Positions 1 through 54,512 of a stretch of 54,512 nt of DNA are shown one piece after another. Source of the stretch: a virus (taxonomy: Duplodnaviria; Heunggongvirae; Uroviricota; Caudoviricetes); IMG/VR virus record IMGVR_UViG_2529293142_000033. One strand, given 5' to 3'. Position 1 is the stretch's first letter. Each line of letters begins with the position of its first letter. A program made the translations under genes and the position numbers. The notes beneath the pieces are model-generated. The model ran no database searches. It worked only from the letters and a program-made list of their open reading frames with translations, and was not told where the DNA came from.

Positions 1-708
1 ATGTGGGTCAATAAGTATATTGACGATTGCACTGATGAGGATTTAAACGATCGTGACTTTATTGCATCAGTTGTTGACCGGGCTATTTTTCATTTCGCGA
101 TTAATAGTATATGTAATCCTGGGGATAATAAAGATGCGACTCCCATTGAACAATGTACTTTTGATGTAGAAACTAAGAATGGCCTTCCCTCCACGGTTCA
201 GCTATTTTATGAGGAATCTAAGGATAATGAACCTTTAGCGAATATACATTTTCAAGCAATAGGTTCTGGTTTTTTAACGTTTGTTAATGCCTGCCAGGAA
301 CATGATGACAACAGCTTAAAATTATTTGCTTCGCTGTTAATTTCACTTTCATATTCTAGTGCCTACGCAGATTTATCAGAAACAGTGTATATTAATGAAA
401 ATAATGAGAGCTACCTGAAAGCTCAGTTTGAAAAATTATCTCAACGTGATATGAAGAAGTACCTGGGAGAGATGAAGCGTCTGGCTGATGGGGGAGAAAT
501 GAATTTTGATGGCTATCTGGATAAGATGTCACATCTGGTGAATGAAGGAACGCTCGATCCTGATATTTTAAGCAAAATGAGAGATGCTGCACCACAATTA
601 ATTAGCTTCGCGAAGTCGTTTGACCCAACCTCAAAGGAAGAGATTAAAATACTTACAGACACTTCTAAATTAATTTATGATTTGTTCGGGGTTAAATCGG
701 AGAAATAA
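1..708 (+). CDS. yjbM: uncharacterized host protein, YjbM-like (gene immediately upstream of dusA)
   Basis: 235-aa ORF beginning at window position 1; size and position upstream of dusA match the E. coli yjbL-yjbM-dusA neighbourhood (recalled synteny, not searched). Confidence 0.55.
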   Translation: MWVNKYIDDCTDEDLNDRDFIASVVDRAIFHFAINSICNPGDNKDATPIEQCTFDVETKNGLPSTVQLFYEESKDNEPLANIHFQAIGSGFLTFVNACQEHDDNSLKLFASLLISLSYSSAYADLSETVYINENNESYLKAQFEKLSQRDMKKYLGEMKRLADGGEMNFDGYLDKMSHLVNEGTLDPDILSKMRDAAPQLISFAKSFDPTSKEEIKILTDTSKLIYDLFGVKSEK

Positions 709-749
709 TATGTGAAGTTCTTCGATAGTATGGAAGGCATTATATAAAA

Positions 750-778
750 GGACCCAATATTTATTGGGTTCTTTTTTC
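750..778 (+). terminator. rho-independent terminator after yjbM-like gene
   Basis: hairpin acccaata..tattgggt followed by T-run. Confidence 0.5.
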
Positions 779-1070
779 TCTATCAATGCTATTAGCAGGG
801 AGATATATCACCAGAGTTTAATGTGTGATTTTTTATTTATCGTCGAACCTGGATTGTTTATCATTGGCCTTAACAAAGTTAACGGCTAATAAGATTATTT
901 CCATCACTTCGTGAGAGCTTCATGCCTTGAGAGGATCTCAATTTTCTTTTGCAATGAGACAGGCGCTTCCTGTTGTTATGGTATAGTACCCCGCTATTGA
1001 GCCTCCTGAATAGTGATGCTGAATAACATAACCCCATGATATATCGATAAAATAATCTCTACATTTGAAA

Positions 1071-1193
1071 ATGCACGGTAATTCTGAAATGCAAAAAATC
1101 AACCAAACCAGCGCAATGCCTGAAAAAACTGACGTTCACTGGAGTGGTCGGTTTAGCGTTGCACCAATGCTCGATAGGATGTACCGTTGTTGA
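1071..1193 (+). pseudogene. displaced original 5' end of dusA (attL side); first ~34 codons then unrelated sequence and stop
   Basis: translates MHGNSEMQKINQTSAMPEKTDVHWSGRFSVAPMLD then diverges; about 75-80 percent nt identity to the 5' end of the intact dusA at 53475; shared core atgctcga at 1167-1174. Confidence 0.8.
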
Positions 1194-1318
1194 AAAACAA
1201 GTAGTTATACACTCTGTGGGAGCCTATTGGGAACTCGGCGTTTTCATTTCAAGGTGTAATCCATACGCGGCTTAAGAATGAGATATAATGCGACTTTTAG
1301 TGTTCCGCTTGAGAGGCC

Positions 1319-1855
1319 ATGATGCTTACCCTGGACGAGATAGGTCAATCAGTACGTAACAATATCCAGTTGATTATTGATCATGTCGGCTTACCTCTTG
1401 CTGTTGGTCCGCTCAGTGATGATGATTACAAGATTCTGTGTGGTGGCTATGGTGAGCTTGAATGGGACTATGCGTTAAGTACCTATGGCAACTCCAGAGA
1501 AAAGTATGAGTTCTGCATAAAACTTGTTCAGCAAGGTCGGGTTCAGGGAATACCATCAGGAGCAGCAATTTGTGTTTATGGGGTTGAAGAAAACATCTTT
1601 CGTATCCATATGATCGAAAGGTTTTCTAGAGAAGATGAATCTCACCCATTGAAAGGGCGCATGGTTTTACTCACTCTTATGAGTGCTTTTATATTTTGTA
1701 AAGCTGTTGAATGTAAAGTTGTCCACATTGTAGAGCCAGTACCAGAACTGGTGCAGTATTACGAGTCTTTTGGTTTCCGCATGGAACAGTGCGGTTATGT
1801 GATGTCGGCAGTCATTGATGAGCTGCAGGATATCTTTCTTAAATTTGCTCAGTAG
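1319..1855 (+). CDS. hypothetical protein, possible GNAT-fold acetyltransferase-like (att-proximal cargo)
   Basis: 178-aa ORF; C-terminal segment (FRIHMIERF..VVHIVEP..LVQYYESFGF) resembles GNAT beta4-alpha3-beta5-alpha4 pattern without canonical QxxGxG; putative -10 tataat about 30 nt upstream. Confidence 0.5.
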   Translation: MMLTLDEIGQSVRNNIQLIIDHVGLPLAVGPLSDDDYKILCGGYGELEWDYALSTYGNSREKYEFCIKLVQQGRVQGIPSGAAICVYGVEENIFRIHMIERFSREDESHPLKGRMVLLTLMSAFIFCKAVECKVVHIVEPVPELVQYYESFGFRMEQCGYVMSAVIDELQDIFLKFAQ

Positions 1856-2051
1856 GTATAGACGAGAAGGGTCTACAAATTGTAGGATACCCGTCCAGAT
1901 TACCTTAAAGGTACATCTATGGCAGTCGTTTTGTGCTTAAACTACTAAGAAACGATGTCACCAATCGACATGATCGATTGGCATAAGTTAGCGAAACAAG
2001 CTAGCTTTAAAGAAAGGGTTAGAGACGCCTTTACTGTCTCGGGAGTTTTCT

Positions 2052-2225
2052 ATGAAAGATCAAAAAGCAACCAAGCCACAGGTTAAGTTCGACACAATGA
2101 AAGCATTCGCAGGTATGGGTGCTGCTGTTGAAGTTCTGATGAAGGCTGCTCCTAATGCGTTCACTCACGCTACTGTCTCTGGTAAAGAGCAGCAGGGTAA
2201 GCTTCGTCGTCGCAAAGCAGCATGA
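2052..2225 (+). CDS. small hypothetical protein (57 aa), Ala/Lys-rich
   Basis: ATG preceded by gggag RBS; followed immediately by strong terminator; below the 60-aa ORF-track cutoff. Confidence 0.4.
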   Translation: MKDQKATKPQVKFDTMKAFAGMGAAVEVLMKAAPNAFTHATVSGKEQQGKLRRRKAA

Positions 2226-2244
2226 TCATAGCTGGTGCTTTTTG

Positions 2245-2272
2245 AAAACCCGCCTTCAGGCGGGTTTTTTCT
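2245..2272. terminator. bidirectional rho-independent terminator
   Basis: aacccgcc ttca ggcgggtt hairpin with T-run on plus strand and partial U-run on minus strand; sits between convergent genes. Confidence 0.7.
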
Positions 2273-2581
2273 TTAGTGATGTTCTTTGCCCTTCTGTTTG
2301 ACTGTTCTGACCTGTTCCCACTCGATACGTCCTTCTTCTCGTCTTTTGTCTATGTATTCCGCAAGATCCTGAATATTGATGCAACGTTTTGCTTTTTGTG
2401 ATGTGCCGATGCGATATGTTGGAATGGGCAACTTACAAGCGTTTGCTTTTGCTTCTGCCGTGGCTGGACTCATACCAAAGTACTTTTGGCTAACTGCTGA
2501 GAGTTCAATGTTTGGGGTATTGAATTCAGCCATCAGTAAAAACAAGGTGTTCATAATTTTCTCCATCAAAACCGGCTGCAC
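2273..2581 (-). CDS. PrtN-like / excisionase-like small DNA-binding regulator
   Basis: 102-aa protein with KYFG..PATAE..LPIPTYRIG..IQDLAEYID pattern typical of pyocin-activator PrtN family. Confidence 0.65.
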   Translation of the reverse strand: MQPVLMEKIMNTLFLLMAEFNTPNIELSAVSQKYFGMSPATAEAKANACKLPIPTYRIGTSQKAKRCINIQDLAEYIDKRREEGRIEWEQVRTVKQKGKEHH

Positions 2582-2590
2582 CCGGGAAAA

Positions 2591-3163
2591 TCATAATTCT
2601 GTGCTGGTGGCAGGAATTAATTTCTGCCAGATAGCTGAAACATATTTGGCCTGATGACGAGCATCAGCCAGGGCGTTGTGCCGTTCGCCATCGAAAGGCA
2701 TGTCCATTTTTGGGTCGAATCCGATGGAACGCCCAAGCGTAACGATCGTGCGTACATCGTGATCATTCCAGTACGCCCATGGGCAGATTTGTCCTGCTCG
2801 TTCATAAGCTCCGCGTAAAATTACGTTGTCGAAGGTGGCCCCGTTACCCCAAACTTTTAAATATTTCGTATTGTCTGCGTGCCGATTAATGAAATGGCTC
2901 AGTTCAGAGAGTGCATCGCTGATCGACAAAGTATCATCAATACAGATTGCAGCTCGTGCTTCAGGGCTTTGTTTCAACCACCACAGGATGGTATCGCCGT
3001 CAGGTGTGGCCCCTTGCTCCATAGCACTGTCCAGGCTGACAACCGTATAGAATTCTTGTCCGATGTCTCCGGTTTCTGGAGTGAAGAACACCGCGCCAAT
3101 GGAAACGATCGGTGCATCCTTATTTTTCCCCATCGTCTCAAGGTCGATCATTAAGTTATTCAT
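2591..3163 (-). CDS. phage 3'-5' exonuclease (DnaQ-like fold)
   Basis: 190 aa; MIDLETMG..IVSIGAV N-terminal exo motif and conserved H/D residues downstream. Confidence 0.7.
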   Translation of the reverse strand: MNNLMIDLETMGKNKDAPIVSIGAVFFTPETGDIGQEFYTVVSLDSAMEQGATPDGDTILWWLKQSPEARAAICIDDTLSISDALSELSHFINRHADNTKYLKVWGNGATFDNVILRGAYERAGQICPWAYWNDHDVRTIVTLGRSIGFDPKMDMPFDGERHNALADARHQAKYVSAIWQKLIPATSTEL

Positions 3164-3474
3164 TACTTCACCTCCTGCGTTTCTTTGCTGCTGTGAATTC
3201 GCCAGTTACCGACGCCTTCCCATTCAAACTGGCGGTTACTAATTCGCGTCCAGCCCCTGCCGAAAAGCAAATCCAGATACCAGTATTTTAAAGTTCTGAT
3301 AATTGCTCTTACAGTTGGTTTGCATCCAGAAGTCTTTGATGCGCAAATAAAGCACCGAGTTATGCTCATGGCTTCTACAAAAGGCCAGATAAACCAAACC
3401 CAGATGCAAAGAGCCACGAACAACATGAGCGCGATGTTAGCCACTAAGCCAGACCAGTACAGATAATTGCTCAT
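3163..3474 (-). CDS. small membrane protein, hypothetical
   Basis: 103-aa ORF with two hydrophobic segments; start overlaps upstream gene stop. Confidence 0.45.
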   Translation of the reverse strand: MSNYLYWSGLVANIALMLFVALCIWVWFIWPFVEAMSITRCFICASKTSGCKPTVRAIIRTLKYWYLDLLFGRGWTRISNRQFEWEGVGNWRIHSSKETQEVK

Positions 3475-3857
3475 TGGTTGCCTCCACCTTGGCTCTGAAG
3501 CATGGCAGCGCGGCAGGCGTTCCAGCCATCAACATACCCAGCCATGATATATCGATTAAAACCCACCTCTTTCTGTGCGCGTGCCAGATTCATTTCCTCC
3601 GGCACGTGTACTGGCTGAGCTATATACAGCGGCTGAACATACCAACCCTTTGATAACCAACTGTCAGCAACGTTTTTACTCCGTGTTATTGCCGGAATAC
3701 CTAAGCCATTGTCTGAATGCAGCCATGCCACCGGCTCCTCTTCTAGCGATGCCAGAGCAATTTCATAAGCACGGCGCTCAATATCGTCTCGAACCTCTAG
3801 GCTGCTGATTCGTTCTTTGATTTCTTTAATCAGTTCTTTATTGGTAAATGTGGTCAT
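3471..3857 (-). CDS. hypothetical phage protein
   Basis: 128-aa ORF in operon context, coupled to neighbours. Confidence 0.5.
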   Translation of the reverse strand: MTTFTNKELIKEIKERISSLEVRDDIERRAYEIALASLEEEPVAWLHSDNGLGIPAITRSKNVADSWLSKGWYVQPLYIAQPVHVPEEMNLARAQKEVGFNRYIMAGYVDGWNACRAAMLQSQGGGNQ

Positions 3858-23378: not shown

Positions 23379-23822
23379 ATGAATAACAAAGAAAACGTGA
23401 AATTTACCAGTGAGTTAATTTGCGGTGCAATGACTCATCAGATAGCAGGCATCACTGATCGCGTGAGAAGCCGGGCATTCTGGGAATGTCTCCTTCGTGA
23501 AGCGCCGGAAGAATTACTGCCTCTCCTGATTTCCCGGGCAATTATTCGCGGACGGGTATTTATGGCCGCCGGTGATATCCGGTTTCCTGTTGAACCTGAA
23601 CCGAAGGCAGACATGTTTGCTGATTTCAGGGAAGAGCTGGAAAAAGCAGAGAAGCGCGAACTGATGTGTATTGCCCTGAAGAGCCAGTTATCAGGAGAGG
23701 TGGATGAAGTCCGTATCACTGAGTTCTGGAAAGCATTCCTGAGACTGTCGTCCCGTGAGTTGCTGGCAGAGGTGCTGACTGAAGTGATTCATGAATGCAG
23801 CAAAAAGGTGAGATGTGGCTGA
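23379..23822 (+). CDS. hypothetical protein
   Basis: 147-aa ORF upstream of cos region. Confidence 0.5.
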   Translation: MNNKENVKFTSELICGAMTHQIAGITDRVRSRAFWECLLREAPEELLPLLISRAIIRGRVFMAAGDIRFPVEPEPKADMFADFREELEKAEKRELMCIALKSQLSGEVDEVRITEFWKAFLRLSSRELLAEVLTEVIHECSKKVRCG

Positions 23823-24480
23823 CCTTAACGACCTTCACAGACAGCTTCAGGGGATGCAGAAGCAGGTGCGTTTTGCCACTGCGCGCGCCATCACCTCAAC
23901 CGTGAGGAAAATTGAAGCGGCAGAGAAGGAAAACCTTCGCCGGAAGCTGGATAACCCGACGCCGTTCACTGTGAACTCGGTGCGCTCAAAAGGGGCCACA
24001 CGGGACAATCTGACCGGGCGGGTGTTCATCATGGATACCGCCGTGCCTTACCTTGAACCCTTTGAGGTGGGCGGGCTGCATTATCTCGGTGAGGGGCAGA
24101 AAGCTGTACTGAACCCGAAAAATATCCGGCTGAACAAATACGGCAACCTGCCAAAGGCAAAACTGCAACAGCTGAAGGCCAGACCGGATGTTTTCATCGG
24201 TAAGGTGATGAACAACGATGGTGAGGCCGTTGGTGGCGTCTGGCAGCGTAAGAAAGCGAAAAAAGTGGCAAAAACCAGGAAGCGGAGAAAACGCTCCCCC
24301 AATGGCACACGCGCTCCCCGCAAAAAAAACCGTCCACCAAAGCTGTTGATACGTTTTGGTGATGCACTGCCGGTCACGCCGGTACTGGGTTATCAGGAAC
24401 TGGCCCATGACATGGCATCGCGTCTCATGAAGACGGAGCTGAATGTGGCGCTTGAACAGGCTTTAAAGACGGCGAAGTGA
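23815..24480 (+). CDS. hypothetical protein with highly basic Lys/Arg-rich segment
   Basis: 221-aa ORF (GTG start); segment RKKAKKVAKTRKRRKRSPNGTRAPRKKNRPPK. Confidence 0.5.
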   Translation: MADLNDLHRQLQGMQKQVRFATARAITSTVRKIEAAEKENLRRKLDNPTPFTVNSVRSKGATRDNLTGRVFIMDTAVPYLEPFEVGGLHYLGEGQKAVLNPKNIRLNKYGNLPKAKLQQLKARPDVFIGKVMNNDGEAVGGVWQRKKAKKVAKTRKRRKRSPNGTRAPRKKNRPPKLLIRFGDALPVTPVLGYQELAHDMASRLMKTELNVALEQALKTAK

Positions 24481-24582
24481 TGCAGACAGTACAGCAGGTG
24501 GGTAACGGGTCCTTCCTGAGCGGGTTATTGCACGGGCATTGCGCGAGCGCGGTGTTTCGCCAGCTATAAATTTTCAATTTTG

Positions 24583-24765
24583 CGTCCCAATGTCCCATTG
24601 TTAATTTTTGTTTCATTCCTTGCTGTGTCTGGCTTAAGTGGTGTTTTGACCTGGGTTTTGTGTCCCAAAAAATGGGACATTTTGATGTCCCAATGTCCCA
24701 ATGTCCCAATGTCCCAATGTCCCATTTCATGTCCCATCAATGGGACATTCGTTTTCGATGTCCCG
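24583..24765. repeat. cos-region repeat cluster (candidate small-terminase binding sites)
   Basis: at least ten direct and inverted copies of the octamer ATGTCCCA / TGGGACAT, including four tandem copies at 24686-24717, immediately upstream of the small terminase start. Confidence 0.6.
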
Positions 24766-24783
24766 GTTTTCGGAGGTGATTCA

Positions 24784-25379
24784 GTGAGCTTAATGACAGT
24801 CGGGCAGTACGCCGAACATGCCGGGGTGAACCGGAAAACAATTTCACGATGGATCAAGGCCGGTACGTTTGTTGTCATGGACGGAAAAAAAATTGACGTG
24901 GAGGCGACAGATAAAAATCTGAAGCGTTTTCGTGACAGCGCCGATCCGCGTGCGGCAAACGGAAAAAAAACAGAGTCGCCAGAAAAGCTAGGGAATCGCA
25001 GTCCGGCACGGTGGAAGGGTTCGAGCAACGGGCAAGAGATGTGTTTGATTCGCTCACCTCCGGGGATGTTGTTATCCGTCCACTGGAAGAGTCCCGCGCA
25101 ATGAAAGAACACTTTTTTGCGGAGATGGCGCGTCTGGAATATGAGGATAAGGACGGAAAGCTGTTTCCGCTGAAACTCGTTACGGAACAGGTCGCTGCTG
25201 AATACACGCGAGTGAGGACGCGCCTTGTTGCCCTTGCGCCTGAGCATGGTCCCCGTCTGCGGGCGCTGGCGGGAATGACGGACGATCAGGGCTTCACGGC
25301 AGCGCTGCAGGAGTTGGTATACGAGGCACTGGATGAACTTGCATTTGAGAAAAGGGAAATCGAAGAAGACCCTTCTTAA
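24784..25379 (+). CDS. terminase small subunit (Nu1-like), with apparent -1 frameshift at A8 tract 24962-24969
   Basis: GTG start after ggagg; N-terminal HTH GQYAEHAGVNRKTISRWIKAG in one frame; protein-like C-terminal 120 aa continues in the -1 frame (ORF 25011-25379); one extra A restores a single ~198-aa ORF. Confidence 0.7.
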
Positions 25380-27312
25380 GAAAGCGCTGATCCAGTTGCA
25401 ACGACATCTTGCATCACCGCAGCCGATGTCCTTAAGCCAGTGGGCCAACACCTTCGCTGTACTGTCCCGTGAGACCAGTGCCCAGACGGGGAAATTCCGC
25501 TCCTATCCCTATCAGGACGGCATGATGGATGCCATCACAGACCCGTCGGTCACGTATGTGTCAGTGATGAAATCAGCCCGTGTGGGATACACGAAAATTC
25601 TTGACCATGTGGTGGGCTATTACCTGGCACATGATCCGTCCCCCATCCTGGTGGTTCAGCCGAGGGTGGAGGACGCCGAAGACTACAGTAAAACCGAAAT
25701 TGCCCCGATGCTGCGCGACACGCCGGTGCTGGCAGCCATCAGCGGCGACCCGAAGGCAAAAAACAGCAACCAGACCATTCTTCGCAAAACCTTTTCCAAC
25801 GGCGCAAACCTCACGCTGGTCGGGGCCAACTCCCCCGGCGGGTTTCGCCGTATCACATGCCGCATCATCCTTTTTGATGAGGTGGACGGGTATCCGGCAG
25901 GGGGCGCAGGATCCGAAGGGGATCAGATTGCGCTGGGAACAAAACGTTCCGAAACCTTCTGGAACCGCAAGATTGTACTCGGCTCCACGCCAACCGTGAA
26001 AGGCGTGAGCCGTATTGAAAAAGCCTGGCTGGAAAGCGATCAGCGCCGCTACTTCGTGCCCTGTCCTCACTGCGGTGAATATCAGGTGCTGGAGTGGGGC
26101 AGCAAAAGCACCCCTTACGGCATCAAATGGGAAAAGGACAGCGAAGGTAACGGGCTGCCGGAGACCGCTTACTACCTGTGCCGCCACCACGGCTGTGTGA
26201 TTGTGCACAGTGAACTGCCCGGGATGCTGGCAAAAGGCGAATGGCGCGCCGGTGCACCATTCAGGGGACATGCCGGTTTTCATATCTGGACGGGCTACAG
26301 CCCGCACTCAAATGCCTCCTGGCCGAATCTGGTCGCCGAGTGGCTGAGGGTGAAGGACGATCCGCTGATGCGCCAGACATTCATCAATACCACGCTGGGC
26401 GAGCCTTACGAGGATGCAGGCGAGTTTGCGATGAGTGAGCAGCGGCTGATTGCCCGCGTTGAGGTCTGGGGGGCGGAGGTGCCGGAGGGCGTGCTCCTGC
26501 TCACCGCCGGGGTGGATACACAGGATGACCGCTTTGAAATCACCGTTCTCGGCTGGGGCATGAACGAAGAGTGCTGGGTGATTGCGCATGACGTGATTTT
26601 TGGTGACCTGGAAACAGAAGAGCCGTGGGAGCGCCTTGACGCGTATCTGAAACAGGTCTGGCGGCGGGCTGACGGTTTCGGGCTGACGCTCTCGGCGGTC
26701 TGTCATGACTCGGGCGGTCATCACACCAACAAAGTGTACGAGTTCTCGAAGGCGCGTATCGGGCGTCGTATCTGGGCGACAAAAGGTGAGTCCGCCACTG
26801 GCGGCAAACGTAACCCTGTCTGGCCGACGCGTGTCGTTTCGTCCCGCAACCGGAAATCCTTCCGCCCCGTCATTCTGGGGGTGAACTCCGCGAAGGACGA
26901 CATCAGGCACCGGCTGCATATTGAGCCGGATCCGGCAGGCGCGCCGACCGCAGGCTGTATCCATTTTCCGTCGTTTCTGGATCTGCACTATTTCAGTCAG
27001 CTGCTCTCTGAGCGTCTGGTGCGTAAGGAGAGCGGCGGGCAGGTGTACCGTGTCTGGGAGTTGTCTTCCGGGCGGGCGAATGAGGCGCTGGACTGCATGG
27101 TGTACGGTTACGCGGCCCTGAAGGGGCTGCTGCATCACGGCCTGAAACTGAACCGTCTGGCTGAACGGACGGCGCAGGATCTGTCGTTTATGGCGCCGCC
27201 TCCCGCGCAGCCGGAAGAAAAAATCAGTTTAAGTATGCCGGGCGCAAAAGCACCGGAGACACCCCGTAAGAAAATACCGCTGCATATGAGGCTTGCAGGA
27301 GTGAGACGATGA
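25333..27312 (+). CDS. terminase large subunit (lambda gpA-like)
   Basis: VMKSARVGYTK, FINTTLGEPYE and NEALDCMVYGYAA segments match lambda gpA pattern; start may be an internal Met (for example 25426). Confidence 0.9.
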   Translation: MNLHLRKGKSKKTLLKKALIQLQRHLASPQPMSLSQWANTFAVLSRETSAQTGKFRSYPYQDGMMDAITDPSVTYVSVMKSARVGYTKILDHVVGYYLAHDPSPILVVQPRVEDAEDYSKTEIAPMLRDTPVLAAISGDPKAKNSNQTILRKTFSNGANLTLVGANSPGGFRRITCRIILFDEVDGYPAGGAGSEGDQIALGTKRSETFWNRKIVLGSTPTVKGVSRIEKAWLESDQRRYFVPCPHCGEYQVLEWGSKSTPYGIKWEKDSEGNGLPETAYYLCRHHGCVIVHSELPGMLAKGEWRAGAPFRGHAGFHIWTGYSPHSNASWPNLVAEWLRVKDDPLMRQTFINTTLGEPYEDAGEFAMSEQRLIARVEVWGAEVPEGVLLLTAGVDTQDDRFEITVLGWGMNEECWVIAHDVIFGDLETEEPWERLDAYLKQVWRRADGFGLTLSAVCHDSGGHHTNKVYEFSKARIGRRIWATKGESATGGKRNPVWPTRVVSSRNRKSFRPVILGVNSAKDDIRHRLHIEPDPAGAPTAGCIHFPSFLDLHYFSQLLSERLVRKESGGQVYRVWELSSGRANEALDCMVYGYAALKGLLHHGLKLNRLAERTAQDLSFMAPPPAQPEEKISLSMPGAKAPETPRKKIPLHMRLAGVRR

Positions 27313-27560
27313 TGAATACCCCCGGCGTGTTTGCCGGAATGTCAAAAGAACAACTGAAGGCGGCACTGAATGAAGCTCAGGCGGCCTATATTGAGCTGCT
27401 TTCAGGGCGGCGTGGCGTGAGTTTCTCCTATGCACAGGGGGACGGCACGCGCACCGTGACTTATTCACAGGCCAGCAGTGCGGATTTGCTGGCGCTGATC
27501 GCGACGCTCCAGCGGGCGCTGGGGATAAGGACGAGAAGGTCCCTGAGCGTGCGTTACTGA
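27309..27560 (+). CDS. head-tail joining protein (gpW-like)
   Basis: 83 aa, position between terminase and portal, resembles lambda W. Confidence 0.7.
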   Translation: MMNTPGVFAGMSKEQLKAALNEAQAAYIELLSGRRGVSFSYAQGDGTRTVTYSQASSADLLALIATLQRALGIRTRRSLSVRY

Positions 27561-27568
27561 GGTGAGCG

Positions 27569-29209
27569 ATGATAGTCGATAAAAATGGCAGACCTTTTCC
27601 GCAACAGACGGAAAAAAAACGCGCACTGAATGACAGCGGGCGGATCCCCTATGACTCTGCCGGTTTCTCGCACGGTTCAGTGGCGGGCTGGAACCCGGTA
27701 CTGTGGTCACCGGACAATGAAGTGAATATCTGGCGCAACCGTATGGTTGCCAGAATGCGCGACCTTGTCCGCAATGACGGCTGGGCGAATGGCAGTATCA
27801 CCCGCCTGCTGGACAATGCCATGGGGGTGGTTTTTCGCCCGAGGATGAAGCCTGACTACCGGATGCTGGCAGAGATGACCGGCAACCGGGCATTTGATGC
27901 AGACTGGGCGGATGAGTACGGGCGTTGTGTGGAAGCGCACTGGCGCAACTGGGCCGGTGATGCCGGGTGTTACTGCGACCTTGAGCGCAGACAGACCCTG
28001 CCACAGCTTTTCCGGCTGGCATTCCGCCACAAGATGGTCGACGGCGATGCGCTGGCGGTCATCCACTGGCGACCGGACAGAATAGCCCCCGGTCGCGGGC
28101 GCTACGGTACGGTGGTGCAGGTGATTGACCCTGACCGGCTGAGTAACCCGAACGATGCGTTTGACCAGCCGCATATCCGTGGCGGTGTGGAAATTGACGC
28201 GGACGGGGTGCCGGTGGCCTATCACATCCGGTCCGCACACATGGGGGACTGGTGGAGCGGCAGTGACACGATGCACTGGGAACGCGTGCCGCGTGAAACG
28301 TCGTGGGGAAGGCCGGTGGTGGTGCATGACTTTGATCATGACCGTGCTGGCCAGCACCGTGGTGTCGGAATTCTCAATCCCGTGGTTCAGCGTCTGAAAA
28401 TGCTCATCAAGTACGACCAGGTGGAGCTGGAAGCCGCCATCATCAATGCCATGTTCGGTTTTTTCATCACGTCGCCCTATGACCCGAAACTGACAGAAGA
28501 TCTGATGAGTGACGCGGAGGTGATTAATGGCTACCAGGATGCGCGCATGAAGTATCACGATACTAACCGGATTTCGATGTCGGGCGTGCGTATTCCCATC
28601 ACGTTCCCCGGCGAAGAGCCAAAAGCCGTGAGCGCCGCCCGTCCGGTCAGTAACTTCAAGGAGTTCGAGGGCACAGTGCTCAGGAATATTGCCGCTGCAC
28701 TGGGGCTGTCCACCCAGCAGGTGACACAGGACTGGTCGGACGTGAACTACAGCTCTGCCCGTGCGGCACTGCTTGAGGCGTGGAAAACACTGACCCGCCG
28801 TCGTGATGAGTTTGCGGTCGGCTTTGCCCAGCCGGTACTGACGGCCTTTCTGGAAGAGCTGCACGAAGAAGAGGATTTGCCGCTGCCTGCCAGTGCACCG
28901 GATTTTCTGGCGGCGCGGGCCGCTTACACCCGTGCCCAGTGGATGGGGCCGGGGCGCGGCTGGGTGGATCCGGTCGCGGAGAAAAAAGGGGCCATTCTGG
29001 CGATGGAGGCCGGCATGTCCACGCTGGAAATCGAAGTGGCCGAGAACGTGGGGGAAGATTTCGAGGATATTCTCGACCAGCGGGCGCGTGAAGAGCGGGC
29101 CTTTAAGGAAAGAGGCCTGACACCGCCTTCCTGGTTTCAGGCAGAGCAGTTTGCCCCCACACCGACGGGGAGCGCCCCGGCAGAGCCGAAGGAGCCTGAT
29201 GTTTCATGA
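27569..29209 (+). CDS. portal protein (lambda gpB-like)
   Basis: 546 aa; DLVRNDGWANG and other blocks parallel lambda B. Confidence 0.9.
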   Translation: MIVDKNGRPFPQQTEKKRALNDSGRIPYDSAGFSHGSVAGWNPVLWSPDNEVNIWRNRMVARMRDLVRNDGWANGSITRLLDNAMGVVFRPRMKPDYRMLAEMTGNRAFDADWADEYGRCVEAHWRNWAGDAGCYCDLERRQTLPQLFRLAFRHKMVDGDALAVIHWRPDRIAPGRGRYGTVVQVIDPDRLSNPNDAFDQPHIRGGVEIDADGVPVAYHIRSAHMGDWWSGSDTMHWERVPRETSWGRPVVVHDFDHDRAGQHRGVGILNPVVQRLKMLIKYDQVELEAAIINAMFGFFITSPYDPKLTEDLMSDAEVINGYQDARMKYHDTNRISMSGVRIPITFPGEEPKAVSAARPVSNFKEFEGTVLRNIAAALGLSTQQVTQDWSDVNYSSARAALLEAWKTLTRRRDEFAVGFAQPVLTAFLEELHEEEDLPLPASAPDFLAARAAYTRAQWMGPGRGWVDPVAEKKGAILAMEAGMSTLEIEVAENVGEDFEDILDQRAREERAFKERGLTPPSWFQAEQFAPTPTGSAPAEPKEPDVS

Positions 29210-30066: not shown

Positions 30067-30640
30067 ATTTTCTTTCATGCACCTGGTAGGCATGGGCGGT
30101 CGTTCGCGAATGGATGACGATCCGGAGGACAAACGCGACGACGAGAATGCAGGGGATGATGAGGACCGTCGCGAAAGCCGTAAGGCGCGCTCCCGTGCGG
30201 ATGACGACGATAACGACGACGGGGAGAATGCGGGGGATGACGAGGAGCGCCGCGAAAGCCGTAAGGCGCGCTCCCGTGCGGATGATGACGATAACGACGA
30301 CGATGAAAACGCAGAAGACGACGATGACGAAGAAAAGATCCGCGCCAGTGAACGTCATCGCTGCGCAGCCATCTTCGCCACGCCGTATGCGGCAAAAAAT
30401 ACGGCCCTTGCCGCAGAGCTGGCCTTCAACACCCGCATGAGTGTGAAACAGGCCAGCGCCGTGATGAAAGCGGCGGTGGCGGTATCCTCAGGCCAGAAAG
30501 CCAGACTGGCGGAGCGGATGCAGCATGTGCCACAGCCGGGAACCGGACGTGATGTCCGCCCTGCACCGACGGAGGCGCACGCGATGGCACAGCACGCCAT
30601 GAAACTGTACAACGAGGCAATGGGAGGTAAAGCGCAATGA
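30059..30640 (+). CDS. scaffold-like protein with acidic tandem repeat
   Basis: 193 aa; position between protease and decoration/capsid genes; contains duplicated ~20-aa acidic unit. Confidence 0.6.
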   Translation: MGKFSFMHLVGMGGRSRMDDDPEDKRDDENAGDDEDRRESRKARSRADDDDNDDGENAGDDEERRESRKARSRADDDDNDDDENAEDDDDEEKIRASERHRCAAIFATPYAAKNTALAAELAFNTRMSVKQASAVMKAAVAVSSGQKARLAERMQHVPQPGTGRDVRPAPTEAHAMAQHAMKLYNEAMGGKAQ

Positions 30641-52288: not shown

Positions 52289-53386
52289 TCAAGAGGTCTT
52301 GTTTCTGCTCCTTTGGAGTTCTTCAAAACGATTATGTAAAGATTTCGGATACAGTTCGGTATATACCTGCCATAGCACGTTTAATGAACGATGCCCTGTA
52401 ACCTGAGCGACTTCCTCAATACTAAAACCAGCCTCAAATAAGCGACTTGCCCCTTCCCTACGCAAATCATGGTATCGCAGATCTTTAATACCTAATTTGC
52501 TTCTTACCCTCTGAAATCCTGCGGTAACAGAAGTGCTGTTATATGGAAAAATGAATTCTGATTTTTGGGGTTGTTGCTGGACGATATCCCAGGCTTCCCC
52601 AAGCAAGGCAACTTTCATATGGTTGCCTTCCTTTTTACGTGGATCTTTCCTATCTCTTACTAGTATAGATTTTTGTTCCTGGTCGAGATCTTCCCATCGT
52701 AACCGGCATACTTCTCCAATTCGCATACAGGACCACACAGAAAATTTGAGGATATCAACGAACGGAATTTTTGAGCATTTATGAGTAGATCGTTGTTGAA
52801 GGCCTTCAATGAGCATGTCCAGTTCATCAGATGCTGGTCTACGATTACGACGGTTTGATTTACCAATCAAACCGAGTTTAAGTAGATATGGACGAGCGCT
52901 TTTCGCCGGGTTTGATGTGTAATTGATTCCGTATACAGGTTTTGCCGCATCCAGAACACTGCCAAGATAACTAACATCGTGGCTGACTGTTGCTGGGCCT
53001 GCACCAGCGTTGTTTCTTAGCCTGCAATGTTCAATTACGTCATTTTCTGTCAGTTCAGATAGTTTGATCGCGGAGATGTCGCTATCCATAAGCAGTTCCA
53101 GCACATATCTTTTAGTACGGCCTGCTTTACCTCCGGCATTTGGGTCATTTAAATATTTGTGTAGTAAGTCACGGACTGTAAGTCCGTCAACAGCATTTGA
53201 TGATGGAATGCCATATAGATCTAATTCCATCACTTTCTGTGCGCCCCATGTTTTGGCATGAGCATGTTTAGGGAATGTTTTGCTTTCCCTGTAAGTGATA
53301 ACACCTTTTTCTTTGATAATCACATTACAGCGATAGCGTGGTGTGCCATCGGATTTTAGTCGTTTCTCTATGTTATAGTACGCCAT
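52289..53386 (-). CDS. tyrosine-type site-specific integrase (dusA-associated)
   Basis: 365 aa, C-terminal catalytic region with conserved R..H..R..Y pattern (..DLRYHDLRREGASRLFEAGF..VAQVTGHRSLNVLWQVYTELYP); immediately adjacent and divergent to dusA. Confidence 0.9.
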   Translation of the reverse strand: MAYYNIEKRLKSDGTPRYRCNVIIKEKGVITYRESKTFPKHAHAKTWGAQKVMELDLYGIPSSNAVDGLTVRDLLHKYLNDPNAGGKAGRTKRYVLELLMDSDISAIKLSELTENDVIEHCRLRNNAGAGPATVSHDVSYLGSVLDAAKPVYGINYTSNPAKSARPYLLKLGLIGKSNRRNRRPASDELDMLIEGLQQRSTHKCSKIPFVDILKFSVWSCMRIGEVCRLRWEDLDQEQKSILVRDRKDPRKKEGNHMKVALLGEAWDIVQQQPQKSEFIFPYNSTSVTAGFQRVRSKLGIKDLRYHDLRREGASRLFEAGFSIEEVAQVTGHRSLNVLWQVYTELYPKSLHNRFEELQRSRNKTS

Positions 53387-53474: not shown

Positions 53475-54512
53475 ATGCACGATAATCATGAAACACAAAA
53501 AATTAATCAAACCAGCGTGATGCCGGAAAAAACTGGTGTTTACTGGAATTCTCGGTTTAGCATTGCTCCTATGCTCGACTGGACGGACAGACATTGCCGC
53601 TATTTCTTGCGTCTGCTTTCCCGCAATACGTTGCTGTATACCGAAATGGTGACCACAGGGGCGATTATTCACGGTAAAGGTGATTATCTGGCGTACAGTG
53701 AAGAAGAACATCCGGTAGCGTTGCAACTGGGCGGTAGCGATCCGGCGGCGCTGGCGCAGTGTGCAAAGCTGGCAGAAGCGCGCGGATATGATGAGATCAA
53801 CCTGAATGTCGGCTGCCCGTCTGACCGGGTGCAGAACGGCATGTTTGGTGCGTGTCTGATGGGTAATGCGCAGCTGGTTGCCGACTGTGTGAAAGCGATG
53901 CGCGATGTGGTGTCGATTCCAGTGACGGTGAAAACGCGTATTGGCATCGATGACCAGGACAGCTATGAATTTCTCTGCGATTTCATCAACACTGTTTCCG
54001 GCAAAGGCGAGTGTGAGATGTTTATCATCCACGCACGTAAAGCCTGGCTTTCGGGGTTAAGCCCGAAAGAAAACCGTGAAATCCCGCCGCTCGATTATCC
54101 GCGTGTGTATCAACTGAAGCGTGACTTTCCGCATCTGACAATGTCGATTAACGGTGGTATCAAGTCGCTGGAAGAGGCCAAAGCACACCTGCAACATATG
54201 GATGGCGTGATGGTCGGGCGCGAGGCGTATCAGAATCCGGGTATTCTGGCGGCAGTAGACCGGGAGATCTTTGGTTCCTCGGATACCGATGCCGATCCGG
54301 TGGCGGTAGTGCGCGCCATGTATCCGTACATTGAGCGTGAACTCAGCCAGGGGACGTATCTCGGCCATATTACCCGGCATATGTTGGGCTTGTTCCAGGG
54401 TATTCCTGGCGCGCGGCAGTGGCGGCGTTATTTAAGTGAAAATGCCCATAAAGCGGGTGCAGACATTAATGTGCTGGAACACGCGCTCAAACTGGTGGCG
54501 GATAAGCGTTAA
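53475..54512 (+). CDS. dusA: tRNA-dihydrouridine synthase A, full length with diverged 5' end
   Basis: 345 aa; body matches DusA; first ~34 codons differ from the displaced host fragment at 1071-1174. Confidence 0.9.

Follow-up and report, generated by a model that had tools for sequence, protein, structure and literature searches.

What is a dense cluster of short repeats doing directly in front of a phage small terminase gene? The window, the whole 54,512-base stretch of DNA analyzed here, is a segment of an Escherichia chromosome with a prophage at dusA; the integrase gene (52289-53386, minus strand) lies beside dusA itself (53475-54512), and the left end of the window (1-3500) matches E. 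coli DNA in which a tRNA-dihydrouridine synthase fragment and a PrtN-family activator are annotated. Upstream of terS, the prophage carries many copies of a single octamer. Comparisons with lambda and with related prophages lead us to read this array, with a probability of about 80%, as the cosB subsite of a lambda-type cos in the dusA-integrated prophage.

The octamer array and the terminase genes

The original prediction described a dense octamer array upstream of the small terminase gene, and counting the motif against background bears this out. Exact copies of ATGTCCCA or its complement TGGGACAT occur 10 times in the window, and 9 of these fall within 24590-24748, leaving just one further exact copy in the rest of the 54.5 kb. 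In shuffles that preserve dinucleotide composition, 2.0 exact copies are expected per 54.5 kb; the maximum is 7, and none of 100 shuffles reaches 10. When single mismatches are allowed, the 200-bp bin that holds the array contains 10 matches and every other bin contains one at most. The core hexamer TGTCCC is found 11 times in the 300 bp upstream of terS, compared with 0.13 expected. In total, the array has 12 sites in 184 bp (24582-24765): the 9 exact copies and three copies with one mismatch, namely GTGTCCCA at 24660, ATGTCCCG at 24758, and the degenerate copy GCGTCCCA at 24582, which differs by one base from the 7-bp word TGTCCCA.

The sites are arranged in distinct groups that span bp 47-230 from the predicted left end of the packaged DNA, with the orientation +++-++++++-+. 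Closest to that end is a proximal pair of direct sites, GCGTCCCA ATGTCCCA, on the plus strand at 24582-24597 (bp 47-62), the position equivalent to R3 in lambda. An A+T-rich spacer (24598-24659) separates this pair from the distal sites; its length is kept in most loci of the same class as the window (class A, defined below). The distal sites begin with an inverted pair, GTGTCCCA-aaaaa-TGGGACAT, at 24660-24680, where most class A loci also have a '+ -' pair. It is followed by a block of perfect tandem copies of ATGTCCCA on the plus strand, the number of which varies among relatives. Four such copies had been reported at 24686-24717; Tandem Repeats Finder instead gives five, at 24685-24724 (period 8, 5.0 copies, 100% match). 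A second inverted pair, ATGTCCCAT-ca-ATGGGACAT, lies at 24729-24748 and is present in all close Escherichia relatives, so that the two inverted pairs flank the tandem block. The last site, the one-mismatch copy at 24758-24765 (plus strand), adjoins the terS ribosome-binding site. Two longer tandem repeats occur elsewhere in the window: an 81-bp unit with 2.4 copies at 30132-30328, coding for Asp/Glu-rich sequence after a protease gene, and a 51-bp unit with 4.6 copies at 43332-43564 within a late structural ORF.

The inverted pairs could form RNA hairpins in the late transcript upstream of terS, acting as terminators, attenuators, or mRNA-stability elements; indeed, terminator-like hairpins with T-rich tails are found at both pairs, 24660-24680 and 24729-24748. 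But the predicted fold of 24575-24790 is unremarkable (z = -1.6; 12 of 200 shuffles fold at least as well) and has no Rfam match, the T-run is not conserved in relatives, and some of them have the pair in the opposite polarity. Hairpins would also leave unexplained both the direct copies and the co-variation of the sites with the TerS domain described below. We consider an RNA function for the pairs very unlikely.

The gene that follows, terS, runs from 24784 to 25379 on the plus strand. It starts with a GTG at 24784, preceded by GGAGG at 24772-24776 (7 nt before the GTG), and has an in-frame ATG at 24793. The array was thought to end about 20 nt before this gene; this is accurate for the GTG, which lies 18 nt beyond the last site, but not for the ATG, which is 27 nt away. 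[quoted passage not shown] Both halves match the phrog_57 profile ('terminase small subunit'): residues encoded by 24784-25104 at profile positions 10-76 and those encoded by 25011-25379 at positions 82-178. The intact homologue in the E. coli prophage L001 matches the same profile with E = 3e-24 (positions 13-178 of 199). With a single A added to the run, the gene encodes 198 aa that are identical to the database protein P0001 (56 member sequences). The frameshift is either a sequencing error or a real mutation, inactivating or subject to slippage; with terS frameshifted, the packaging system of this particular prophage may be inactive.

The surrounding genes are those of a lambda-type packaging region. 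The large terminase gene, terL (25333-27312, plus strand), encodes a protein of the lambda gpA type (Pfam GpA_ATPase, E = 1.6e-76; GpA_nuclease, E = 4.8e-82) that is the enzyme expected to nick cosN. After terL, aligned relatives annotate a gpW family head-tail joining protein, a portal protein, and an S49 family peptidase. On the other side lies a 221-aa gene at 23815-24480 (phrog_1924, 'minor tail protein'); in relatives, this gene always directly precedes cos. The conserved place of the same gene before terS was also pointed out in the paper on Serratia phage BZS1 (PMC7556043).

The open reading frame at 24580-25104 runs across the array, and so the repeats might encode an N-terminal extension of the small terminase, including the MSQCPNVPMSQCP region. 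The frame is open from 24580 in the window, and the difference between the five tandem copies found here and the two copies found in some relatives is 24 nt, a multiple of three. The relatives, however, argue against coding: in 19 related loci, the open stretch in frame with terS ends 21-168 nt upstream of the gene, with stops at unrelated positions. The GGAGG, a Shine-Dalgarno sequence, stands just before the GTG at 24784, and phrog_57 and all homologues begin at the HTH. We rejected a coding extension on the basis of the in-frame stops in the relatives and regard it as barely credible; the earlier view that this part of the ORF is non-coding is supported.

Predicted cosQ and cosN upstream of the array

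If the array belongs to a lambda-type cos, cosQ and cosN would be expected upstream of it, in the order cosQ, cosN, cosB, terS, terL that the window shares with lambda. A cosQ-like element, GGGTCCTTCC, lies at 24507-24516 on the plus strand and covers the positions 29 to 20 bp before the predicted nick. It opens with eight bases, GGGTCCTT, that also open the lambda element GGGTCCTTTCC and stand there at the same distance from the nick; the element is unchanged in all aligned relatives.

For cosN, we relied on homology to a mapped end. Searching deposited phages with tblastn, we found that the closest TerS proteins are those of Serratia phage vB_SspM_BZS1 (MT843275) and Citrobacter phage phiNP, with 38-40% identity. 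In the BZS1 record, a left cohesive end of 12 nt, GCATTGCGCGCC, is annotated at the very start, and terS follows at bp 75. The overhang of these 5' cohesive ends was predicted by PhageTerm and confirmed by comparing virion DNA end sequences with a PCR product from the lysogen (PMC7556043). In the window, GCATTGCGCGAG at 24536-24547 (plus strand) matches the BZS1 end at 10 of 12 positions in the same conserved context, and we predict that it is a lambda-type 12-nt 5' cohesive end. The segment that follows, CGCGGTGTTTCGCCAGCTATAAATTTTCAATTTT (24548-24581, plus strand), aligns with lambda bp 13-46 and is conserved across both of the major TerS classes, A and B; here the lambda segment after the cohesive end, CGCGGGTTTTCGCTATTTATGAAAATTTT, is homologous to CGCGGTGTTTCGCCAGCTATAAATTTTCAA in the window.

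We then aligned joined ends from lambda (J02459), BZS1, the window, and three relatives. The sequence ACGGG at the nick is common to lambda, BZS1, the window, and the relatives, and lambda R3 falls on the first two octamers of the array: the first TerS site lies at bp ~47-62 in the window and at bp 53-70 in lambda. R3 occupies approximately bp 53-70, and bp 56 and 59 are critical (PMC4669245). The alignments to lambda and BZS1, by placing the first sites at R3, show that the array stands exactly where cosB should be.

The last two positions of the predicted cohesive end, 11 and 12 (24546-24547), vary among relatives, reading AG, CT, CG, or CC across the window and the loci L001, L074-75, L080-87, and L004-L013. 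The right half of cosN varies likewise in lambda-like phages, as described by Feiss and colleagues (PMC4669245). Recombination between relatives that differ at these positions would give mismatched cohesive ends.

Co-variation of the repeated word with the TerS N-terminal domain

A megablast search with 24400-25400 found no match among deposited phages, and we assembled related loci from several sources: 65 with one genome per species, 80 from IMG/VR, 12 contigs encoding P0001 or P0002, and 3 E. coli RefSeq prophages. The closest complete E. coli relative of the cos region is L001 (E. coli strain numer 3, from a pigeon). Between its holin and endolysin genes (L001:550-1695), this prophage has genes annotated as 'enterotoxin A family protein' and 'Heat-labile enterotoxin IIA, B chain'; in a literature search, we found no paper on LT-II prophages that also mentions terminase. 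The TerS proteins of the relatives have a conserved C-terminal domain and fall into classes set by the N-terminal helix-turn-helix.

In a set of 156 loci, the type of recognition helix predicts the most frequent 7-mer upstream of terS. Class A, to which the window belongs, has the helix (N/D)RKT(I/V)(S/T/G)RW and the word TGTCCCA; the 300 bp upstream of terS contain 3-11 copies, with about 0.1 TGTCCC expected. Class B has the helix SRKT(V/I)TxWK(A/S)RG and the word GGTAACA, with 1-9 copies per 300 bp. The helix TRQTIYDWAKH goes with GTGTCAA / TTGACAC (3-4 copies per 300 bp), and the helix SRTAFYNWESKD, of the SRTAFYNW type, goes with GTGTAAA, as (A)AAGTGTAAA (4 copies per 300 bp); these last two classes have only 1-3 loci each. 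The word lies about 230-330 bp upstream of terS in the TRQTIYDW locus L014 and within 200 bp upstream in the SRTAFYNW locus L068. In the first set of loci, at least three TGTCCC are found in 17 of 17 class A loci and at most one in 39 of 39 class B loci (Fisher p = 1e-14, an overstatement in that related loci are counted as independent). Because the word and the TerS N-domain lie less than 300 bp apart, part of this association is co-inheritance.

Do the sites also keep their arrangement? We compared 37 distinct class A loci from nine genera: Escherichia, Morganella, Arsenophonus, Xenorhabdus, Photorhabdus, Yersinia, Hafnia, Rahnella, and Ewingella. In every one of them, the first site begins at bp 47 or 48, counted from the cohesive end. 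A spacer of 63-66 bp precedes the distal cluster in 29 loci, even though its sequence is unalignable between genera. All but one of the loci have 5-13 sites; the exception has 3, along with decayed sites. The commonest orientation pattern is +++-+++++, and 132 sites give the consensus R-TGTCCCA-y with random flanks. In two Arsenophonus loci (L013 and L061), the sites show partial decay (TGTCCCC, TGCCCCA, TGTCACA, TGTCTCA), which fits prophages that are degenerating in the genomes of endosymbionts. This decay implies that selection maintains the sites elsewhere.

Class B loci have their own word in the same register: TGTCCCATGTCCCA in class A and GGTAACAGGTAACA in class B both start at bp 47-48. 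In class B, GGTAACA is found at bp 48-61 after cosN and then in many copies inside the terS linker, where it codes for Gly-Asn repeats (L002:4820-5090, L003:4180-4545, L069:47-305, L070:2484-2735); the length of the TerS linker varies between strains. The putative binding sites of class B are thus written into the coding sequence of the protein that probably binds them.

The clearest case of co-variation comes from a natural pair of prophages. Between the window and the E. coli prophage L003, which belongs to class B, identity is 96% in 23816-24574 and again in 25101-28000; no homology is detectable in 24575-25100, the stretch that comprises the array, the TerS N-domain, and the linker. More generally, homology between class A and class B prophages breaks off at 24574-24585, and the upstream 221-aa gene is 96% identical between the two classes. 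Given flanks this similar, neither the product of that gene nor TerL can be the specificity partner of the word; the sole protein segment that switches with the word between the window and L003 is the TerS N-domain. The constant anatomy, the shared register of classes A and B, and this natural swap together indicate that the link between word and domain is functional, beyond mere co-inheritance. Together, the word and the TerS N-domain would make up an exchangeable cassette for packaging specificity, like the one that distinguishes lambda from phage 21.

To what kind of domain does the word correspond? We modeled P0001 with AlphaFold2 from a 38-sequence alignment (mean pLDDT 78; 83-88 for the first 50 residues). 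In the model, residues 1 to ~55 adopt a winged helix-turn-helix fold of the MerR/Xis type, with the HTH at the extreme N-terminus, followed by a disordered linker and a helical C-terminal half. The best fold matches of the N-domain are solved small-terminase DNA-binding domains, followed by excisionases, BldC, and MerR-family regulators. A Foldseek search with the entire P0001 model returns the same set of matches plus lambda gpNu1 (1J9I, TM 0.55), with weak E-values (0.18-0.9) because a two-domain model of 198 residues is being compared with domains of about 55. With hhalign, TerS residues 4-34 pair with lambda Nu1 residues 3-33 at a marginal probability of 53%. Sequence comparison places the class-specific TerS residues on the predicted recognition helix, at positions equivalent to lambda Q20 and E24.

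At the level of sequence family, the two proteins part ways. Pfam Phage_Nu1 (PF07471) has no match to P0001 at E up to 1, nor to the two halves of the window TerS, L001, or L002 at E up to 0.1; searched in the same way, lambda Nu1 reaches 333 bits. A search of PDB sequences with the TerS family profile returned nothing relevant, Nu1 included. TerS is Nu1-like in its fold and position and is outside the Phage_Nu1 sequence family. The proposal of a cosB-type array for a Nu1-like HTH is thus supported by the upstream cosQ and cosN, the R3 position, the co-variation of word and HTH, and the cassette swap, but has to be amended with respect to the family to which the protein belongs.

The tandem block itself differs between nearly identical Escherichia relatives. 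L001, L074, L080-85, and L087 carry 2 copies and L075 carries 4; the 5 copies of the window are also found in L086, which was assembled independently. The last site, single in some close relatives, is doubled in L074, L075, and L086. Many short-read contigs (L076-L079, Logan) end 37-97 bp upstream of terS, inside the array. One might therefore suppose that the repeats are a neutral microsatellite generated by replication slippage and have no function: such close relatives differ in the 8-bp block (2-5 copies) and in the last site (1-2 copies), and short-read assemblies break at this place. Slippage cannot, however, make dispersed and inverted copies, nor can it keep the word, the position of the first site, and the spacer length across nine genera whose spacers are unalignable; the decay of sites in the degenerating Arsenophonus prophages likewise implies selection elsewhere. 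We judge a neutral origin of the entire array to be improbable. The variation in copy number among near-identical relatives means that the extra tandem copies are best read as slippage, which probably explains only these copies. The five-copy block is most likely an expansion of a two-copy core that is tolerated or mildly useful. The conserved core is best read as the proximal pair, the spacer, an inverted pair, at least two direct copies, the second inverted pair, and the last site.

The array might instead be an operator that governs terS and the head operon, with either TerS (autoregulation) or a different phage regulator bound to it, and with a packaging role that is partial or absent. In the window the last site abuts the ribosome-binding site, and in other genera it overlaps the probable start codon (TGTCCCATG); 24646-24673 weakly resembles a sigma-70 promoter, and the MerR, Xis, and BldC regulators have the N-domain fold as well. 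But promoter-like matches are at chance level, with 2 found compared to 1.0 expected in shuffles. In 37 of 37 loci the first site keeps its distance from the cohesive end (bp 47/48), and it aligns with lambda R3; such a position is expected of a packaging site, and an operator does not explain it. Class B relatives carry most of their sites inside the terS coding region, and only the TerS N-domain switches with the word. We therefore consider an operator in place of a packaging site unlikely; TerS autoregulation may be a secondary role.

Proposed mechanism and comparison with known cos sites

How might the array work as cosB? By analogy with lambda, the twelve copies of R-TGTCCCA-y would be bound by the N-terminal winged helix-turn-helix of the phage's own TerS. 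TerS at the proximal pair (bp 47-62) would anchor the gpA-type large terminase through the conserved TerS C-terminal domain, and the anchored terminase would nick cosN about 45 bp upstream, at 24536-24547. The distal cluster, with its two inverted pairs, tandem block, and last site, would hold further TerS subunits and cooperate with the proximal pair over the fixed spacer of ~64 bp by bending or looping the DNA; this cooperation would make the complex stable and specific. For this phage, we infer the binding, the nick position, the looping, and any role of IHF from the lambda system. The 8-bp-period sites are probably not all occupied at once by a wHTH, given its footprint of ~10-12 bp; with a footprint wider than the period of the repeat, part of the tandem block may be redundant.

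In lambda, a gpNu1 dimer bridges two 16-bp sites across a hairpin induced by IHF, at site I1 between R3 and R2. We looked for a counterpart in the window, where the spacer has no recognizable IHF site: the best match to the IHF consensus WATCAANNNNTTR differs at 2 positions, and 195 of 500 shuffles contain one at least as good. The spacers of most other loci likewise scan no better than shuffles. With IHF matches at shuffle level, we do not claim an I1 site. A weak motif, WTTCAnnnnGTTA, is confined to the loci of Morganella, Arsenophonus, and Xenorhabdus, where its position is constant.

Other differences from lambda concern the sites and the protein that would read them. The recognition word in the window is 7-9 bp, compared to ~16 bp in lambda; there are 12 sites, including the five-copy tandem block, compared to three (R3, R2, R1); the cohesive end is GCATTGCGCGAG instead of GGGCGGCGACCT; and lambda gpNu1 belongs to Pfam Phage_Nu1, whereas the window TerS does not. 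Besides the gene order and the cosQ and post-cosN sequences, the two systems share at least one inverted site, a gpA-type TerL, and a wHTH at the extreme N-terminus of TerS (for lambda, PMC4669245).

The cassette organization recalls the lambda, 21, and N15 modules studied by the Feiss laboratory, in which specificity lies in cosB and the TerS N-terminal recognition helix while cosQ, cosN, and TerL are shared (PMC4669245). The window and L003 would be a natural E. coli prophage pair that differs only in such a specificity unit, on 96% identical flanks. In the family of the window, the specificities are deduced from sequence, and at least four words occur within one TerS family. Phage N15 has a 'simple' cosB with an accessory inverted site, rR2, inside the terS gene (PMC4669245). 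Similarly, the class B relatives (BZS1, phiNP, L002, L003) have sites inside terS, ~150-250 bp from the proximal sites. In contrast, all of the sites in the window (class A) are intergenic, and class B has many intragenic copies that double as Gly-Asn codons. BZS1 and phiNP share the cosQ and cosN sequences and the first-site position with the window; unlike the window, they have a class B TerS and the word GGTAACA. The BZS1 paper (PMC7556043) maps cos but describes neither cosB nor repeats.

A further parallel is found outside packaging. BldC, lambda-type Xis, and RacA, which have the MerR/Xis fold, bind head-to-tail to short direct repeats in arrays. They are among the fold matches of the TerS N-domain model, yet they are transcription or recombination factors and not packaging proteins. 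A more speculative idea, one that we think has the odds against it, is that this TerS family reads DNA unlike gpNu1, with many wHTH domains loading onto dense 7-bp words (direct copies at 7-9-bp periods plus inverted pairs) and polymerizing or wrapping the DNA without IHF. The number of tandem copies (2-5) would then tune packaging efficiency, and the helices would follow a simple, swappable code ('one helix, one 7-mer') whose natural specificities number at least four (TGTCCCA, GGTAACA, GTGTCAA, and GTGTAAA).

The array falls within a known kind of system and is distinct in several respects: its TerS family lies outside Phage_Nu1; the word is 7-9 bp; most class A loci have 5-13 sites with a variable tandem block; and the sequences point to at least four natural specificity cassettes on a shared background of lambda-type cosQ, cosN, and gpA. 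In the searchable literature, none of ATGTCCCA, TGTCCCA, GGTAACA, or GGGTAACA appears in a phage paper, and we came across no account of this cosB. To our knowledge, genetic work has resolved how a small terminase recognizes cos for only a few specificities (lambda, 21, N15), all of them in the Nu1 family. Here a second TerS family goes with lambda-type cosQ, cosN, and gpA, and each of its putative specificities comes with an obvious 7-bp word. With natural prophage pairs that differ only in the cassette, the wHTH recognition code, the number and spacing of sites, and the need for IHF are all open to study by swaps. In practical terms, these findings yield a rule by which cos can be found, and genome ends predicted, in many Enterobacterales prophages of a widespread group; they also explain why short-read assemblies end at this place, since the tandem block breaks k-mer assemblies. 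Finally, they bear on the question of which helper could package which satellites or related prophages.
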